Origin: an uncultured Alphaproteobacteria bacterium | Lineage (GTDB): Bacteria; Pseudomonadota; Alphaproteobacteria; RF32; CAG-239 | Assembly: GCA_944391715.1 (NCBI GenBank) | Contig: CALXUP010000001.1 | Coordinates: forward strand, 13,790-77,789 | Direction: 5' to 3' | Length of the DNA: 64,000 nucleotides | In this document: in pieces, positions 2,693 to 58,027 of the stretch | How the letters are laid out: every line of letters begins with the position of its first letter | Numbering within the stretch: position 1 is the first letter of the stretch | Position numbers and translations under genes: made by a program | The notes under the pieces: generated by a model | Databases searched by the model: none | What the model was told of the DNA's origin: nothing | What the model saw: only the letters and a program-made list of their open reading frames with translations

Positions 2693-3125
2693 TGTATTTT
2701 CCAGTCAGTTAGCCTATTTGTAAGATGATACTATAATAAGCAAAAACTGTCAATTTTATGTTAATAAAATCTGTCATAACAAAAATATTTCTTCCCTCCC
2801 TCTGAATTCACTCTTTGTTTATTTTTTTGTTTCTTTATTTTCTTGTTTTTTTACTGAGATATTTGTTTTCGCTACTTTTGAATGTCCAAAAAATCCTTTT
2901 CTTACTTTTGCTTGACCAAAAGGCCGAACGTCGGCAGCGCTCAAAAAAGTCAAGCCCAACCTCATTTTCTAAGCTTTCAGCCCAAAGTTAAGGTCACTAC
3001 GTTCCAAGGCTTAGTGCTTCACTATTATCTCTTTGGGCCAAAAGCTAAGAAATTATTCGGTAATCGGGCTGGTCTAACTCCCCCTGCCCCCTCTTATCAA
3101 AGAGGGGGAATTGTTTTTAAGCTCC

Positions 3126-3153
3126 GTCATTCTCGGGCTTGACCCGAGAATCC
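3126..3153 (+). repeat. CGTC-type REP palindrome (empty site)
   Basis: GTCATTCTCGGGCTTGACCCGAGAATCC; identical copy at 48127; resembles Rickettsia RPE-4 / Neisseria dRS3-type repeats. Confidence 0.85.
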
Positions 3154-3173
3154 ACAGGCAACGGCCTGAGCTG

Positions 3174-3233
3174 TCAGTTGTTGAAATTTCTTAGATGATT
3201 CTGGGCTGTGGTATGATAATAGAATTTTCCCAT
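3174..3233 (-). CDS. Small ORF MGKFYYHTTAQNHLRNFNN (19 aa)
   Basis: AAGGAG RBS upstream; first 8 residues shared with ORFs at 27553 and 48655. Confidence 0.45.
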   Translation of the reverse strand: MGKFYYHTTAQNHLRNFNN

Positions 3234-3258
3234 TTCTTTTTAGCTCCTTGTTTTGATT

Positions 3259-3426
3259 AAAACAAAACCGCCGGAAGTTTTCTTCCTGGCGGTGGAACTC
3301 AAAAACTGTATAGACACAGTCGCCATGATTCGTCCACAAAGCGGCTTATTTTAGGCACTCCACCTCAAGGTGGATAAATCTGTAAGATGTTTTCTAGACA
3401 CCACAACCGGTCTCCCGGCTGCGGAA
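3259..3426 (-). ncRNA. C4/P4-CI-like antisense RNA leader with target region and terminator, copy A
   Basis: Hairpins CAGCCGG-GAGA-CCGGTTG, GGTGT-CTAGAAA-ACATC, TCCACC-TTGA-GGTGGA; terminator CCGCC..GGCGG-TTTTGTTTT; pairing conserved in divergent copy B; family name is inferred from architecture. Confidence 0.55.
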
Positions 3427-3429
3427 GTA

Positions 3430-3457
3430 ATCATAAACGAATCTGGGGCTTTTGCAA
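3430..3457 (-). promoter_or_regulatory. Sigma70-like promoter with GANTC in spacer
   Basis: TTGCAA-16 bp-TATGAT; equivalent promoters at 27744-27771 and 48850-48877. Confidence 0.6.
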
Positions 3458-3466
3458 GGCGAAATT

Positions 3467-4546
3467 TTATTTCTTTTTATCTTCTTCGTCTTTTTTGGAT
3501 TTTAACTGCCCGCAAGCAGCCAAAATATCCTGGCCGCGGGCAACGCGTACCGGAGCGGCATATCCGCCTTTTTCCAGCTCTCTCGAAAAAGCCATTACCC
3601 GGTTGCGGGAACTCGGCTTATAAGCGCAGCCCGGCCAGGGGTTGAACGGTATCAGGTTAAACTTTGCACCGATTTTATATTTTTTCATCAAAGCAATCAG
3701 CTGATGGGCGCAATCCAGAGAATCGTTTATGCCGTCTAACATCAGATATTCAAAAGTAATAAAACGGCTGGTAACGATTTTCTGGTATTCCTGACAAGCC
3801 TGCATGACTTCTTCCAGCGGATATTTATTGTTAATCGGCATAATTTTCGAACGCAATTCATTATTCGGCGCATGCAGACTGACAGCCAATTTAACGCCCA
3901 ATTCTTGCGCAACTCTGGTCATTTTCGGCGCAATGCCGGAAGTCGAAAGCGTTATTCGGCGTTTGGATACGGCAAGACCTTCTCCGTCCGAGATGATTTT
4001 CAGCGCAGTTATGACATTGTCCAGATTATGCAGCGGCTCGCCCATTCCCATAACAACAACGTTTGACAGGAATCTGGTTTCATTTGCAGGTGTCGGCCAT
4101 TCGTTATAAGCATCTCTTGCAACCAAAAACTGTCCGACGATTTCCCCGGCGGTCAGATTCCGGGTAATGCGCTGGCTGCCGGTATGACAAAAGGTGCAGC
4201 CGACGGCACAGCCGACCTGCGTGGAGATGCAAACGGCACCGCGGTCTTCTTCCGGAATATAAACCATTTCCACCCGCTGTCCGTCGGCAAATTCCAGCAG
4301 CCATTTGCTGGTTTTGTCCGAAGAAATCTGGCGGGTAACGACTTTCGGACGGCTGATGACATAACCGGCGCTCAATTTCTCGCGCAGGTCTTTAGACAGA
4401 TTGGTCATAGCGGAGAAATCCGTTACGCCCTGATTGTAAAGCCAGTGCCAGATTTGTTTGGCGCGAAAAGGCTTTTCTCCGAGTTTGGCAAGCTCGGCGG
4501 CAAGTTCATCCCGGCTCAAGCCGATAAGTTCGATTTTTTCGTTCAT
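3467..4546 (-). CDS. rlmN: 23S rRNA/tRNA m2A methyltransferase RlmN
   Basis: CISTQVGCAVGCTFC radical-SAM motif, MGMGEP, C-terminal AACGQL. Confidence 0.97.
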   Translation of the reverse strand: MNEKIELIGLSRDELAAELAKLGEKPFRAKQIWHWLYNQGVTDFSAMTNLSKDLREKLSAGYVISRPKVVTRQISSDKTSKWLLEFADGQRVEMVYIPEEDRGAVCISTQVGCAVGCTFCHTGSQRITRNLTAGEIVGQFLVARDAYNEWPTPANETRFLSNVVVMGMGEPLHNLDNVITALKIISDGEGLAVSKRRITLSTSGIAPKMTRVAQELGVKLAVSLHAPNNELRSKIMPINNKYPLEEVMQACQEYQKIVTSRFITFEYLMLDGINDSLDCAHQLIALMKKYKIGAKFNLIPFNPWPGCAYKPSSRNRVMAFSRELEKGGYAAPVRVARGQDILAACGQLKSKKDEEDKKK

Positions 4547-23407: not shown

Positions 23408-23500
23408 GGCGGAGAGCGCCGGACCGGCTGCCCGCCAATCTGGTCAGGTTCGAGAGGAAGCAGCCATAACGGGATTTGACGGGGTCGGTTGTTCTCCACC
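23408..23500 (+). ncRNA. ffs: Signal recognition particle (4.5S) RNA
   Basis: GGTCAGGTTCGAGAGGAAGCAGCC helix-8 motif; 5' GGCGGAGAGC pairs with 3' GTTCTCCACC; ffs-dnaX-ybaB-recR synteny. Confidence 0.92.
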
Positions 23501-23513
23501 CTTTTTTAAGAAA

Positions 23514-26732: not shown

Positions 26733-27146
26733 TATTTTCCCCCAAGGGGATTTTTTCTATTTTTATTGTTACTTTTTGAATGCCAAAAAATCTTTTCCTT
26801 ACTTCTTGTTTTGTTTTTTTATCCGAAATTATTTTTTCTTTGTTACTTTTTGGGTGCCAAAAAGTAACCAAAAAGGCAGCCCTCTCTCGCTTTCTAGGCT
26901 TTCAAGAAAAAGTTAGGGTCGCTACGCTCTCTACCATTGTACTTCAATTTTATCTCTTTTTCTTAAAAGCCAAGAAGTTGCTCGCGAAGGGCAAGGTCTA
27001 ACTCCCCCTTTCCCCCTCTTAGCAAAGAGGGGGTATAAAGTTTCTAAACCTAAGCCATTCGCAAAGGGCACTCAATCGTGCCGGATGAAGGATTGTGCTT
27101 TAGATGGAAGTGAAAGGGTATAGGGGCACTGTCATTCTCGGGCTTG

Positions 27147-27320
27147 AAGTCGATAGTTGGTGAGAACGAGTGCAAATCTCTAGCTTTAGCTTAGATTTGT
27201 ACGAAGTTCGAACCCTACGAGACGCAATTGCATTCGGCGTCGCGTGCCGCAGGCACTGGGACAGCCGGATAAAATCGCTGAGCTGGCGAAGTGCCAAGGG
27301 GCCCGCTTGCGGGAATTTAC
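27147..27320 (+). mobile_element. 174-bp non-autonomous element inserted in REP loop (long form)
   Basis: Splits GTCATTCTCGGGCTTG|ACCCGAGAATCC; same ends (AAGTCGATAG...GGGAATTTAC) as the reverse copy at 48409-48512. Confidence 0.8.
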
Positions 27321-27370
27321 ACCCGAGAATCCACAGGCAACGGCCTGAGCGGTCGGTTGTTGAAATTATG

Positions 27371-27553
27371 CTACAGAAACCGCGTTGCTCCATTGTTTTC
27401 CACGATCAAGATTCTGCCTTGAATGGTAGATTGCCGGGTCAAACCCGGCAATGACAAAAAAACACAACCCGGGGATGACCGGTGCGACCGGCGAGCGGCC
27501 AGTTGACAGCATTGTGCTGCAGAAGCTGCGGTATGATAATAAAACTTTCCCAT
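27371..27553 (-). CDS. Small ORF MGKFYYHT... (60 aa) reading into REP repeats
   Basis: AAGGAG RBS; synonymous differences (AAG TTT vs AAA TTC) relative to copies A and C. Confidence 0.4.
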   Translation of the reverse strand: MGKFYYHTAASAAQCCQLAARRSHRSSPGCVFLSLPGLTRQSTIQGRILIVENNGATRFL

Positions 27554-27576
27554 TTTTTAGCTCCTTCGTTTTGTTA

Positions 27577-27741
27577 AAAACAAAATCCGCCTAAAAAACA
27601 GGCGGATGGAGCCGAAAAACTGCATAGACCAGTTATGGCTATTCGTCGTGCGGGCACGCTTATATTGGATACTCCGCTGAAGCGGAATATTGTTTACAAG
27701 ATGTTTTCTAGACACCACAGTCAGCCTCCTGACTGCGTGAA
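27577..27741 (-). ncRNA. C4/P4-CI-like RNA leader, divergent copy B
   Basis: GCAGTCAG-GAGG-CTGACTGT, invariant GGTGTCTAGAAAACATCTT, ATATTCCGC-TTCA-GCGGAGTAT, terminator TCCGCCT..AGGCGGA-TTTTG. Confidence 0.55.
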
Positions 27742-27828
27742 TTATATTAAACGAATCTATGCTTTTTGCAAGCGTCTTTTTAAGGGAGGGAAGATGTGTC
27801 CCGGATGATACAGACGTAATTGTCTAAT

Positions 27829-28554
27829 TTAATGGATATTATCAATCAACCGGTCAAGATTATCCCGTTCCAGTTTATTATAGCCTTCTTCCACCTGTTC
27901 ATCGAGCTTTTTAGCTTTCTCAACGTCTTTTTTGAACTTTTTGACCTGAGGCTGAGTCAGTTTGTCAAACAGGGCCTGAGCGTCTTTTTGCTTTTTCTCT
28001 TCTTTGGCGGCGGCTTCTTTCTTTTTGTCTTCTTCCTCTTTGCCGTTCATTTCTTCGGCCTTTTTACGGATGCTTTCCAAAGTTTCTTCCGGAATCAGGT
28101 TTTCAATCGGTTTGGCAAAATTGCCGGCAATGTTAAAATATTTTGATTCCTGCAAAACTTCCGGCTGCTTGTCATGCGGCATAATCCAGCTTAGCAAAAT
28201 ATAAACCAGAACAATCAGCAAAAAAGCTCTCGCTATGCCGAAAAACAGCCCCAGAATCCTGTCCAGAGAACTCATTTTGGATATTCTGATATCGTTTATA
28301 ATCCCGCTGGTGGAAACGTTCCAGATTATCATAAAAACAATCAGAATGCTTAAGGCGGTGATAATTCCGCCAATCATTCCTTCGGCAATATATTCTTCCG
28401 TCAGCGGATTTAAGACCGGAAGCAGATAAATAACGGCAATCGTGCCCAGAACCCAGCCGATAATCGACAAGACCTCTTTTACCAGGCCGCGGCTCAGCGC
28501 TATCAGTCCGGAAATTCCGACCACAAACAGAATTATGACGTCTACGTTATTCAT
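27829..28554 (-). CDS. cvpA: CvpA (colicin V production) family membrane protein
   Basis: RGLVKEVLS, LDRILGLFFGIAR; downstream of radA. Confidence 0.9.
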   Translation of the reverse strand: MNNVDVIILFVVGISGLIALSRGLVKEVLSIIGWVLGTIAVIYLLPVLNPLTEEYIAEGMIGGIITALSILIVFMIIWNVSTSGIINDIRISKMSSLDRILGLFFGIARAFLLIVLVYILLSWIMPHDKQPEVLQESKYFNIAGNFAKPIENLIPEETLESIRKKAEEMNGKEEEDKKKEAAAKEEKKQKDAQALFDKLTQPQVKKFKKDVEKAKKLDEQVEEGYNKLERDNLDRLIDNIH

Positions 28555-47403: not shown

Positions 47404-48408
47404 TATTTCTGACCTAAGTTCTTTTGTCTTGGGTATAATATAACTGATAAAAGTTTGCAAGAGATTAATAGGGTATAAATTGTTCCCTCCCTCTGAATTC
47501 ACTCTTTATTTATTTTATAATTTTATTTTTCATTGTTACTTTTTAAGTGCTAAAAAGTTCTTTTCTTATTTCTTGTTTTTTATCTGAAATTATTTTTCAT
47601 TGTTACTTTTTGAATGTCAAAAAATCTTTTCCTTACTTCTTGTTTTGTTTTTTTATCCGAAATTATTTTTTCTTTGTTACTTTTTGGGTGCCAAAAAGTA
47701 ACCAAAAAAGCAGCCCTACGCTCATTTGCTTAGGTTTCAGAGCAAAATTAACCTCGCTACGCTCTCTACCATTGTGCTTCAATTTCGGTTTTTGCTCCAA
47801 AACCTAAGCCATTCGCAAAGGGCACTCAATCGTGCCCAAATGGATGTTTTGTGCTTTTTTTGATATGACAGAAAAGTTAGCCCTGAACTCGTTTTCTAAG
47901 TCTTCGTGAAAAAGTTCAGGCCGTCTAAGCCAAGGCTAAGACGGCAAGAAGGCACATAGTGTTTTTAATTTCCTCTTTTTCACAAAGACTAAGAAGTACT
48001 CGTTAAAGGGCATTTCTAACGCCCCCTGCCCCCCTCTTAGCAAAGAGGGGGTATAAAGTTTCTAAACCTAAGCTATTCGCAAAGGGTAGTTAAAAGTGCC
48101 GGACGAGGGATTGTGCTTGAGGTATTGTCATTCTCGGGCTTGACCCGAGAATCCACAGGCAACGGCCTGAGCGGTCAGTTGTTGAAATTGTGCCACAACG
48201 ACCGCGTTGCTCCATTGTTTTTCACAGTCAAGATTGTGTTTTGAAATATGGATCCCCGGGGCAAGCCGGGGATGACTAAAAAAATAAAGTGCCCGGGTAT
48301 GACCGGTGCGACCGGCGAGCGGTCAGTTGTTGAAATTGTGCCACAGAGACCGCGGTGCTCCGGCATTTTCTGTGAGGACTTTGTGCTTTGAAGGGTGGAT
48401 TGCCGGGT

Positions 48409-48512
48409 GTAAATTCCCGCAAGCGGGCCCCTTTCGTCCCGTAGGGTTCGAACTTCGTACAAATCTAAGCTAAAGCTAAGGATTTGCACTCGTTCTCACC
48501 AACTATCGACTT
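48409..48512 (-). mobile_element. 104-bp non-autonomous element inserted in REP loop (short form)
   Basis: Splits reverse-strand GTCATTGCCGGACTTG|ACCCGGCAATCC at the same position as the 27147-27320 copy. Confidence 0.8.
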
Positions 48513-48565
48513 CAAGTCCGGCAATGACAACGATAATAAGCGGTTATTTAATCTCGCTCTTTTAT

Positions 48566-48655
48566 TTAACCCTCTATCTCTTCTTCCAAGGCCTCAAAAC
48601 TGTCGCAAGGGTCTTCATTGAAGTCTTCCGTCGTATGATAATAGAATTTTCCCAT
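48566..48655 (-). CDS. Small acidic ORF MGKFYYHTTEDFNEDPCDSFEALEEEIEG (29 aa)
   Basis: AAGGAG RBS; shared N-terminus; unique tail not derived from REP sequence. Confidence 0.5.
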   Translation of the reverse strand: MGKFYYHTTEDFNEDPCDSFEALEEEIEG

Positions 48656-48679
48656 TTCTTTTTAGCTCCTTGTTTTGAT

Positions 48680-48846
48680 AAAAAAAACCGCCGGAAGTTT
48701 TCTTCCTGGCGGTGGAGATCAAAAACTGTACAGACACAGTCGCCATGTTTCGTCCGCAAAGCGGCTTATTTTAGGCACTCCACCTCAAGGTGGATAAATC
48801 TGTAAGATGTTTTCTAGACACCACAACCGGTCTCCCGGCTGCGGAA
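48680..48846 (-). ncRNA. C4/P4-CI-like RNA leader, copy C
   Basis: Near-identical to copy A; single-stranded TACAGA is exactly complementary to downstream loop TCTGTA. Confidence 0.55.
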
Positions 48847-48884
48847 GTAATCATAAACGAATCTGGGGCTTTTGCAAGGCTTTA

Positions 48885-50225
48885 TTATTTGCCGATACAG
48901 AAATCACCGAATATCTTATCAAGAATCTCATTGACTTCTATGCGGCCGGTGATTTTGCCCAGAGCCCTGGCAGCCAGACGAATATCTTCTGCCGTCAGTT
49001 CGATTTCTTTATCAAAACTGAAATGCTGCAGGTTTTCCATAACTTCCTGCAATGCTTCACGATAGCGGCTGCGGGTTATCAGCAAATTGGAGTTGGAAGT
49101 AAAACGTTCGCAGATATATTCGTATATCCGGTCTAAAATTTGAGAAATTCCTTCCTTTTGTTTGGCGGAAATCAAAATACAACCTTGTTTTTCTAATTCA
49201 GAACACTGTTCGGAAGTTAATTTATCACTTTTATTTGCGACAAGTATAGTATTGTTTTTAAAAGAATTTCTTATATTATCAAATATTTGAACACCATCTT
49301 TTGAGGCATCAAACAAACATATTATAAAATCTGCCGATTTTATCTTACTATAAGCAATTTCAATGCCTTTCTTTTCGATTTCTTCATTTGCTTCCCGCAA
49401 TCCGGCCGTATCGGTAAACATAACAGGGTAGCCTTTGATATCTAAATGGATATCTATCGCGTCACGGGTTGTTCCGGCAATATCAGAAACTATCACGGCC
49501 TCACGATTGGCAATTGCATTTAACAAACTTGATTTTCCGGCATTGGGCGGCCCGACAATCACAACACGAAAGCCTTCACGCAGACGTTCACCGATATTAT
49601 CAGCTTTTAAATGTTCATAAACACTGTTTTCAAGTTTAAATACATTGTTTTTCATTTCTGACATAACATTATTCGGAATATCTTCATCGGGAAAATCGAT
49701 AAAAGCTTCCAAATGGGCAAGAATTTTCAGCAGCTGTTCCCGCCAGTCGTCATACAGGTTCTTCAGTCCGCCTTCCATTTGGCGCATGGCATATTTTTGC
49801 TGTTCGGAAGTTTCGGCATCAATCAGGTCAGCCAGGCCTTCTGCCTCGGTTAAATCCATTTTGCCGTTATAAAAAGCACGTTTGGAAAATTCTCCCGGTT
49901 CAGCCATACGAAAATCTTCTATCTGCGCCAAAGTCGAAAGGACTCCGGAAATTACGGCCTTGGAGCCATGAGTCTGGATTTCGACAATATCTTCCCCGGT
50001 AAAAGAATTCGGTGCCTTAAAATACAAAATAAGGCATTTATCCAGCGTATTGCCTTCATTATTCTTCAGGCTGACAAAATAAGCGTAACGCGGTTTTATT
50101 TTTGTTGCATCCAAACTTGTCATTTTTTTCAGCGCCGCAAGGGCATTGTTTCCGGAAATGCGGATGATGGCAACGCCCGACTTGCCGTATACGGTGGAAA
50201 GAGCATAAATTGTCTGGTTGTCCAT
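48885..50225 (-). CDS. mnmE: tRNA modification GTPase MnmE
   Basis: SFTGED, GPPNAGKSS, GTTRD, DTAG, NKSD, C-terminal FCIGK. Confidence 0.97.
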   Translation of the reverse strand: MDNQTIYALSTVYGKSGVAIIRISGNNALAALKKMTSLDATKIKPRYAYFVSLKNNEGNTLDKCLILYFKAPNSFTGEDIVEIQTHGSKAVISGVLSTLAQIEDFRMAEPGEFSKRAFYNGKMDLTEAEGLADLIDAETSEQQKYAMRQMEGGLKNLYDDWREQLLKILAHLEAFIDFPDEDIPNNVMSEMKNNVFKLENSVYEHLKADNIGERLREGFRVVIVGPPNAGKSSLLNAIANREAVIVSDIAGTTRDAIDIHLDIKGYPVMFTDTAGLREANEEIEKKGIEIAYSKIKSADFIICLFDASKDGVQIFDNIRNSFKNNTILVANKSDKLTSEQCSELEKQGCILISAKQKEGISQILDRIYEYICERFTSNSNLLITRSRYREALQEVMENLQHFSFDKEIELTAEDIRLAARALGKITGRIEVNEILDKIFGDFCIGK

Positions 50226-57517: not shown

Positions 57518-58027
57518 ATGGCCAGAAAGTCTCCCAATAAAGCTGATGCCCTGGTTTATAAGGCATTGCAGAAGGCTGTTGAACAAGACAGACTGCGGGT
57601 TTATCTGGATTATGCCAAAGTTAACCGGCCGCAGTCGCCGGTGTATGATCCGTGGGAATGTCTGCTGCCGGTTCTGATCCCGGTGATGATTGGTTTGCTG
57701 CTGATTGTCGGGGTCGGTGTTTTGTTTGGTTTGCTTTTTATTGTCGTGATGATTTTGGTCTATAGCACATATGTCAAAAAAATTATGCATAAAAAGCTGA
57801 TTGAACGGACAAAACGCTTTTTGACGGCAGATTATGATAATTGCTGTAAATTGTGGGAGTTTGGCGGAATTGTTCTGGTGAATACGCAGAATAAAAAAAT
57901 CGGCTGTGTGGCTCCGGAAGGCGACTGGAAAGATTTTGTCGTGCTTAATTATGCCGATTTGATGGTTGACCATAATAATGAAAAATCTGAACAAAAACAA
58001 GAAGGCGACGACTCAAAATCAGCCTGA
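57518..58027 (+). CDS. Hypothetical membrane protein
   Basis: 169 aa with central hydrophobic hairpin; tightly packed in operon. Confidence 0.75.
   Translation: MARKSPNKADALVYKALQKAVEQDRLRVYLDYAKVNRPQSPVYDPWECLLPVLIPVMIGLLLIVGVGVLFGLLFIVVMILVYSTYVKKIMHKKLIERTKRFLTADYDNCCKLWEFGGIVLVNTQNKKIGCVAPEGDWKDFVVLNYADLMVDHNNEKSEQKQEGDDSKSA

Follow-up and report, generated by a model that had tools for sequence, protein, structure and literature searches.

A probable uncatalogued family of leader RNAs with attenuator architecture in uncultured gut Alphaproteobacteria

A stretch of 64,000 nucleotides from the genome of an uncultured alphaproteobacterium (GenBank assembly GCA_944391715.1, contig CALXUP010000001.1, positions 13,790 to 77,789; referred to as the window) contains three copies of a cassette, designated A, B and C, in which a structured RNA precedes the remnant of a small gene. 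We consider it probable, from comparative sequence analysis, that this RNA represents an uncatalogued cis-regulatory leader family of uncultured gut Alphaproteobacteria and that it would work as a cis-acting attenuator. The original prediction had described the cassette as a promoter-driven antisense RNA of the P1 c4 and P4 CI type, combined with an attenuator and present without a phage. That three such copies exist on the minus strand, with all the elements then listed, was borne out. What is added here is that the genome has seven copies, that an XRE-like gene is normally found behind the leader, and that this gene has been destroyed behind A, B and C.

The exact 19-mer GGTGTCTAGAAAACATCTT occurs at three sites in the window, all on the minus strand (3384-3402, 27698-27716 and 48804-48822). 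In shuffled sequence it has 0.03 matches on average, and three or more matches were seen in none of 100 shuffles. The copies can be aligned from a -35 box, TTGCAA, through the ninth codon of a common open reading frame (ORF) start, MGKFYYHT. While A and C share 96% identity, B is only about 71% identical to either, and its hairpin stems differ from theirs by compensating changes. Hairpin 1 (H1) reads CAGCCGG/CCGGTTG in A and C and CAGTCAG/CTGACTG in B, and hairpin 3 (H3) occurs among the copies as TCCACC/GGTGGA and TTCCGC/GCGGAG. Each copy has the same layout, with a promoter-like site, a structured RNA of about 165 nt (161-165), an intrinsic terminator, a Shine-Dalgarno (SD) site and an ATG; the ACTG..CAGT hairpin and AAGGAG are likewise present in all three. 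In a promoter scan, TTGCAA-16-TATGAT was called in A and C. Copy B stayed below the thresholds of that scan, and by eye its TTGCAA (27771-27766) is followed by TAATAT (27749-27744, 16-nt spacer) or by TATAAT (27746-27741, 19-nt spacer), which gives a promoter-like region at 27741-27771. The box is homologous to the sites called in A and C and is conserved across the family copies. The terminator scan called B at 27607-27585 and only the inner part of the terminator in C; that of A, which has a longer loop, was not called.

A covariance model, R1, with 193 positions and 51 pairs was built from 25 leaders. It scores 172.2 bits for A, 164.5 bits for B (E 1.7e-45) and 164 bits for C, and the match to B extends from the leader through the SD and the ATG (27548-27739, minus strand, genome C1:41337-41528). 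Pairing and covariation were counted in a model-based alignment of 66 matches, 58 of them distinct, and the family-wide values given below for the helices of R1 refer to these 58 copies. Standard pairs occupy 92.9% of the cells, versus 68.4% after shuffling and 40-46% when the partners are slid against each other. Nearly all pairs (49 of 51) change on both sides, with a covariation score of 0.600 versus 0.178. Pairs of G and U are common (e.g. GU in 37 sequences at the first pair of H1), which argues for a structure at the RNA level and on this strand rather than for a DNA palindrome. The promoter-driven RNA with covarying hairpins and a terminator, as originally predicted, is thus supported by the promoter-like sites and by covariation over many copies.

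The folded elements of copy B follow each other on the minus strand. H1 (CGCAGTCAG GAGG CTGACTGTG, 27716-27737) is 96.8% paired family-wide, with changes on both sides in 7 of its 8 pairs. Site Y (CTAGAAAAC, 27703-27711) lies in the loop of a local hairpin, GGTGT/ACATC (27700-27716), the stem of which is 95.4% paired in the family. It is followed by site X (TGTAAAC, 27692-27698), a variable segment of 7 nt. Then come H3 (TTCCGC TTCA GCGGAG, 27672-27687), the 3' strand of which is the candidate antiterminator and anti-sequestrator, and an arm, P5-H4 (27635-27671; H4 at 27647-27658), with a conserved internal loop (..ATAAG / CGAATA..). P5 has only 2 of 4 pairs in B and is thus mostly unpaired there; across the family P5 is paired to 94.2% and H4 to 98.8%. 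The local hairpin ACTG..CAGT (27619-27633; stem 96% paired family-wide) carries site X' (GTCTATG, 27623-27629) in its loop, and site Y' (GTTTTTCGG, 27612-27620) comes next. The anti-SD CTCC (27608-27611) is located directly 5' of the terminator (27575-27607), which consists of a stem-loop with 9 pairs (27607-27585) and a T-run (27584-27575). The terminator helix is 95.5% paired in the family, with covariation. The SD and start codon (27551-27564; GGAG 27564-27561, ATG 27553-27551) complete the leader; CUCC and the GGAG of the SD are 97% paired family-wide and are also paired in the minimum free energy (MFE) fold of B, which has -68.1 kcal/mol (z = -6.0). The loop of H1 (e.g. window 27725-27728) is mostly a GNRA-type tetraloop (GAGA, GUGA, GAGG), and the internal loop of P5-H4 is invariant and purine-rich (..AUAAG / CGAAUAA..). 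A tetraloop-receptor contact between the two is conceivable.

Two pairs of complementary sites had been part of the original prediction, and both exist. Site Y (CUNNAAAAC in the family) pairs with Y' (GUUUUNNAG) in 95.5% of cases. X, the seven variable bases just 3' of Y, pairs with X' in 94.4%, with 4-6 pair types per column. In the window, Y:Y' has 8/9, 8/9 and 7/9 pairs in A, B and C, and X:X' has 6/7, 6/7 and 7/7. The imperfect match of CTAGAAAAC to GTTTTTGAG (A), GTTTTTCGG (B) and GTTTTTGAT (C) is as had been claimed, and so is the exact TACAGA/TCTGTA match in C. The long-range helix of the window copies thus has 1-2 mismatches, and in most relatives both halves are perfect. By their covariation, Y:Y' (9 bp) and X:X' (7 bp) are the two parts of a single bipartite long-range helix, and the three-way junction that it is predicted to close belongs to the same RNA. 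Without recourse to any alignment, energy folding of the copy C7:57k (z -6.5) recovers H1, the long-range helix, H3, P5-H4, the terminator and the SD/anti-SD pairing.

In P1 and P4, the c4 and CI transcripts belong to phage or satellite immunity operons (c4-icd-ant, the P4 immunity region) and yield, by processing, an RNA of some 77 nt through which genes further downstream are silenced in trans. For P1, PMC8198154 describes C4 RNA as blocking icd/ant expression. An RNA of this kind would expose its two sites to matching targets or to other copies and would bring about immunity or cross-regulation. The likeness to these systems, P1 c4 among them, is that two short segments are complementary to two others further down the same transcript, upstream of the controlled gene; in the leader, both site pairs covary. 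A further point in favor of such an RNA is found on contig C7, where Y and X of C7:57k fit Y' (9/9) and X' (6/7, by reading) of C7:32k better than the latter's own sites do (8/9 and 1/7). Such a fit between copies is expected from a recent duplication, since the two are 87% identical. The partners are only about 85 nt apart in one leader, upstream of its terminator, and they are joined into one helix on folding, so that they form an intramolecular closing helix and mask no distant ribosome-binding site. The variability of X:X' does not exceed that of P5 or H4. Rfam scans of A, B and C at E<=10 gave no C4-type family, and none of their matches came near a gathering score; no phage immunity operon is associated with the leader. 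When the genome was searched with at most one mismatch allowed per site, the only perfect two-site targets were the leaders themselves or their own complement. Of the proposed dispersed family acting in trans, the dispersal stands, and for the action in trans this search of the genome gave no perfect target elsewhere. We regard an antisense RNA of the c4/P4-CI type as very unlikely and c4-like action in trans as unsupported.

The proposed alternative pairing of H3 with the 5' end is likewise not supported. The bases 5' of H1 are not conserved, and by eye the U or C before GGUGU does not track the H3 sequence. The partner is found at the other end of the leader, where the 3' strand of H3 (GGNGGAG) is complementary to the CUCC of the anti-SD and to the bases next to it, which form the base of the terminator stem on its 5' strand. 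The variable base of the H3 strand and the base after CUCC (column pair 149-300) are combined as UA (18), AU (9), CG (8), UG (3), GC (2), GU (2) or otherwise (4), so that this position covaries in all four Watson-Crick combinations. An alignment-free test started from 74 distinct copies, of which 4 were dropped for lack of anchors and 70 were used. The variable position is paired in 93% of these, versus 40% when the partners are swapped between copies. The contiguous helix has a mean length of 6.76 bp versus 4.98 +/- 0.17 in 1000 shuffles, none of which exceeded 5.44. When the terminator forms, the variable position has no partner, and selection for the alternative helix is therefore the best explanation of why it covaries. 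Controlled termination, which had been part of the original prediction, thus has its logic in the sequence, as a terminator together with a covarying alternative helix.

These elements suggest a switch with two states. Transcription would start at the cassette's own sigma-70-like promoter. In what is presumably the default OFF state, the junction and H3 would form, the terminator would fire and a short RNA of about 165 nt would be left; in any transcript that reads through, the SD would be masked by the anti-SD. In the ON state, the 3' strand of H3 may capture the anti-SD together with the bases at which the terminator stem begins, which would weaken the terminator and free the SD, and the local hairpins GGUGU/ACAUC and ACUG/CAGU would supplant the long-range helix. 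Since no linker separates Y' from the strand that takes part in the alternative helix, the topology suggests that the antiterminator cannot coexist with the long-range helix. Metabolites, proteins and temperature are all conceivable as the signal that decides between the states. The genome codes for Hfq and for two GGDEF proteins, and CsrA was not found in it (96.8% complete).

The genome consists of 1.55 Mb on 35 contigs. It has seven R1 matches with 125-214 bits; besides the three in the window, there are two on C7 and single ones on C10 and C17. Only two of the seven (C7:32395-32982, or C7:32k, and C17:23567-24092) are followed by an intact ORF, which codes for 113 aa, and both stand behind defective leaders. 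In C7:32k, X pairs at 1/7 and Y at 8/9 positions, and in the C17 copy the promoter and the 5' half of the leader have been replaced by the end of the upstream gene. The best RNA of the genome, C7:57k, forms 51/51 pairs but has a dead ORF. The 113-aa protein has 17 homologues, all unnamed. In Pfam it resembles XRE-type helix-turn-helix (HTH) proteins below threshold (HTH_3 17 bits versus a cut-off of 23). Its AlphaFold2 model has a four-helix core with a predicted local distance difference test score (pLDDT) of 70-82, and in a Foldseek search with this model all of the top matches were HTH domains of the XRE type (HipB, DdrO, ClgR, a controller protein, lambda repressor; E>=0.012). Across the 74 distinct copies, an ORF of 50-120 aa begins within 50 nt in 49 cases and a longer ORF in 3; 17 copies are without a downstream ORF of at least 50 aa and 5 are located at the end of a contig or locus. 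Pfam matches to XRE/Cro HTH domains at E<=0.01 were obtained for 23 of the 43 downstream products that were scanned. Other products are a BspA-type leucine-rich repeat protein, an outer-membrane beta-barrel and a TM2 protein. No promoter of its own is evident for the gene behind the leader. In intact family members, the gene that would be controlled usually codes for a small XRE-like HTH regulator, and in some cases for an envelope protein.

Several results weigh against a cis-acting attenuator. The candidate antiterminator consists of one strongly covarying position and an invariant GGAG/CUCC and overlaps only the bottom 2-3 pairs of the terminator. The alignment behind the pairing and covariation values and behind the counts of alternative pairs had been fitted to the model and hence is biased towards the structure. 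The HTH assignment is weak, as only 2 of the 43 products pass the curated Pfam cut-offs and Foldseek gave no match at E<=0.001 with the model of the 113-aa protein. Within the genome, dead ORFs go with the RNAs that are preserved best, and defective leaders with the only two ORFs that are intact. A purely cis-acting role also fails to explain the copies without an ORF of at least 50 aa and the loci that are tandem arrays of the RNA. Finally, in a comparison with two further species of the genus, in which loci syntenic to A and B are found (L013, L014), the leader is conserved no better than its flanks, so that selection on the window copies is not demonstrated; at an overall identity of 93-95%, this comparison has no power.

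That the best RNA has a dead ORF and that intact ORFs have defective leaders leaves room for a role of the RNA alone. It might be a stand-alone trans-acting small RNA, perhaps with a dual function as proposed for Brt1 of Bartonella; the terminated RNA would then be the actual product, with distant mRNAs as its targets, and the downstream gene would be secondary. RNA-only loci, which make up 5 of the 7 copies in the genome, keep intact promoters and folds, and Hfq is encoded. In another genome (G081, contig C7), four tandem leaders follow each other about 245 nt apart (L052:1012-1944), and an 86-aa ORF is found only behind the last of them. Brt1 is abundant, and action in trans has been proposed for it (PMC5387305). 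However, no complementarity to a target was found in the genome, most copies do precede an ORF, and the orthologous relic copies gather changes at paired positions. Moreover, neither the antiterminator nor the conserved pairing of SD and anti-SD would be meaningful in an RNA that does not act in cis. We therefore consider a trans-acting small RNA unlikely and continue to favor the cis-acting attenuator.

The leader is widespread in its own family of bacteria. When searched at the DNA level, 20 of 41 relatives proved to carry the cassette, the genome with the window (G000) counted, which corresponds to 19 of the 24 other genomes of the same family. With R1, matches were obtained in 58 of 61 genomes of that family, with at least 42 in the richest genome and at least about 590 overall. 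When one genome was searched for each of the other families of the class (E<=0.01), 12 of 149 had matches, one of them with 128 bits and the others with 18-50 bits, and their alignments have the same paired sites. A sample across the phylum, which included other Alphaproteobacteria, yielded one marginal partial match in 150 genomes. A pattern scan of contigs (15 fixed bases) was less specific, as 24 of the 80 loci fetched have an R1 match and the other 56 are chance matches. The contigs with true R1 matches are recorded as uncultured Alphaproteobacteria, Rhodospirillales or 'Proteobacteria bacterium CAG:495' and come from gut and rumen samples; two short ones are labelled Lachnospiraceae. The distant leaders from other families of the class (L059-L064) precede envelope proteins and not HTH regulators; by Pfam these include an outer-membrane protein beta-barrel and a TM2 protein, and several others are lipoprotein-like by eye. 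No description of this leader RNA was found in those parts of the literature that were searched.

The cassette might also be a DNA-level repeat without RNA function, for instance a mobile-element end or a module of the repetitive extragenic palindromic (REP) or miniature inverted-repeat transposable element (MITE) type, with hairpins that are DNA palindromes. This would fit the location of the cassettes 8-55 nt after housekeeping stop codons, the REP-like repeat mosaics in which they are set, a 25-nt palindromic module with 56 matches in the genome, and the many copies at contig ends. However, G-U pairs are frequent, and on the opposite strand they would appear as A-C combinations, which do not pair. 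Promoter, fold, terminator, SD and ATG have a fixed order, the covariation extends to the long-range and alternative helices, and the RNA is conserved into other families of the class with different genes behind it. A DNA repeat is thus a most improbable explanation of the family.

The closest known system would be Brt/Trp of Bartonella, a comparison that rests on architecture; homology was not detected in a scan of pBGR3. According to PMC5387305, B. henselae has nine Brt RNAs of 194-203 nt in a plastic region, each of which immediately precedes trp, a small gene for an XRE regulator, and Brt was reported there to be specific to the genus Bartonella (Tu et al. 2016). According to the review PMC8070961, deletion of the 3' stem-loop of Brt1 raises trp1 transcription, so that the stem-loop is a transcriptional attenuator, and a response to haem is reported for Brt. 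As far as these texts go, both systems have a highly structured RNA (about 200 nt in Bartonella) with a terminator hairpin at its end, just upstream of a small gene for an XRE-type or, here, XRE-like HTH protein, for which no own promoter is reported in Bartonella or evident here. Both are multicopy (2-34 in Bartonella versus 7 here and at least 42 in the richest relative), and both occupy plastic, repeat-rich regions of host-associated Alphaproteobacteria. In contrast, an antiterminator and SD masking are defined by covariation here, and no such model was seen for Brt in the same texts. When R1 was run with filters off on pBGR3 (NC_012847), which carries one Brt according to PMC5387305, the best match had 12.6 bits (E 0.014) and was not upstream of the HTH gene. 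We thus describe the leader as one that would work in the manner of Brt and not as a member of the Brt family.

The leader also resembles riboswitches and attenuation leaders. It has a conserved sensor-like domain closed by a variable helix of P1 type, an intrinsic terminator between promoter and ORF, a mutually exclusive helix that uses the 5' side of the terminator, and sequestration of the SD. It differs from them in having dozens of copies per 1.5-Mb genome, in its targets, which are small regulators or envelope proteins and not metabolic genes, in the RNA-only relics and tandem arrays, and in matching no Rfam family. It is possible, although as a whole we hold this only tentatively, that the leader constitutes a new riboswitch-like class of sensors, in which the junction with its invariant internal-loop and junction bases binds a host- or gut-derived signal. 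With a single input, a genome might then turn on dozens of its envelope proteins and small XRE regulators, and copies in tandem or without an ORF might act on this signal or factor too, either as decoys or as buffers. Compared with Bartonella Brt, the leader might be its counterpart in function or might even be related to it very distantly.

Should the proposed control in cis hold true, widespread uncultured gut Alphaproteobacteria with genomes of about 1.5 Mb would run a large regulon, made up of tens of small DNA-binding regulators and of surface proteins, by means of one structured leader RNA. It would provide Rfam with a new RNA family that has an unusually clear two-state design and hundreds of natural variants, and it would be a second, independent example of the Brt/Trp arrangement, which has so far been described only in Bartonella. 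The identity of the signal would then reveal what these bacteria sense in the gut.

The three copies in the window are most likely relics, or loci that now make the RNA alone, as the regulator ORF is truncated behind all of them. The remnant behind B (27371-27553, minus strand) has 60 codons. Its homology to the intact 113-aa gene ends after about 9 of them (MGKFYYHTA), beyond which the frame runs into repeat DNA, and the piece downstream of the start codons of B recurs at contig ends. Copy A (R1 match 3231-3425, minus strand, genome C1:17020-17214) has its promoter-like site, TTGCAA-16-TATGAT, at 3430-3457, beginning 10 nt after the rlmN stop codon (3467-3469). Its sites are Y 3389-3397, X 3379-3384, X' 3309-3314, Y' 3298-3306, SD 3244-3247 and ATG 3231-3233, and its anti-SD has been mutated to TTCC. 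The remnant ORF of A (3174-3233) ends with a stop after 19 codons (MGKFYYHTTAQNHLRNFNN), and the truncation is identical at L013. Copy C (R1 match 48653-48845, minus strand, genome C1:62442-62634) has the same promoter-like sequence at 48850-48877, which begins 8 nt after the mnmE stop codon (48885-48887). Its sites are Y 48809-48817, X 48799-48804, X' 48729-48734, Y' 48718-48726, SD 48666-48669 and ATG 48653-48655. In its remnant ORF of 29 codons (48566-48655), the initial 8-9 codons of the 113-aa gene continue in frame into its final 20 or so, an internal deletion that becomes apparent in comparison with the intact C7 and C17 copies.

Since the loci syntenic to A and B in L013 and L014 have the same truncated ORFs, the truncations are older than the splits of those species. 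When A is compared with its orthologue and with C, the changes that weaken pairs are the mismatch in X', the anti-SD changed to UUCC and one G-U pair in H4. It seems that the window copies mainly record how the cassette has spread behind housekeeping genes and then eroded. The copies are dispersed on the chromosome next to rlmN (A), to cvpA and radA (B) and to mnmE and mnmG (C), and no phage gene is adjacent, as had been noted in the original prediction.

The cassettes start shortly after the stop codons of the co-oriented genes rlmN, cvpA and mnmE (window 3430-3469, 27741-27831 and 48850-48887). A mosaic of REP/MITE-like modules is located behind each of them (window 27100-27530, 2880-3175 and 47810-48560). 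It is composed of the 25-nt palindrome mentioned above (counted with up to 4 mismatches), a C-rich palindrome and a piece with an end resembling a tRNA T-arm (12 matches). These modules are often found at contig ends, and in A and B they replace the ORF. The genes mnmE and mnmG are usually adjacent; here, copy C and the repeats fill a gap of 1.38 kb between them (window 47503-48884), and the terminator of the leader would fall between both genes.

Two further RNA genes are predicted in the window. An Rfam scan of the whole window at gathering thresholds listed only the bacterial small signal recognition particle RNA (window 23408-23503, 51.2 bits), which is encoded directly upstream of dnaX-ybaB-recR. 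That scan listed no tRNA, whereas ARAGORN predicts a tRNA-Leu(CAG) of 94 nt at window 57599-57692.

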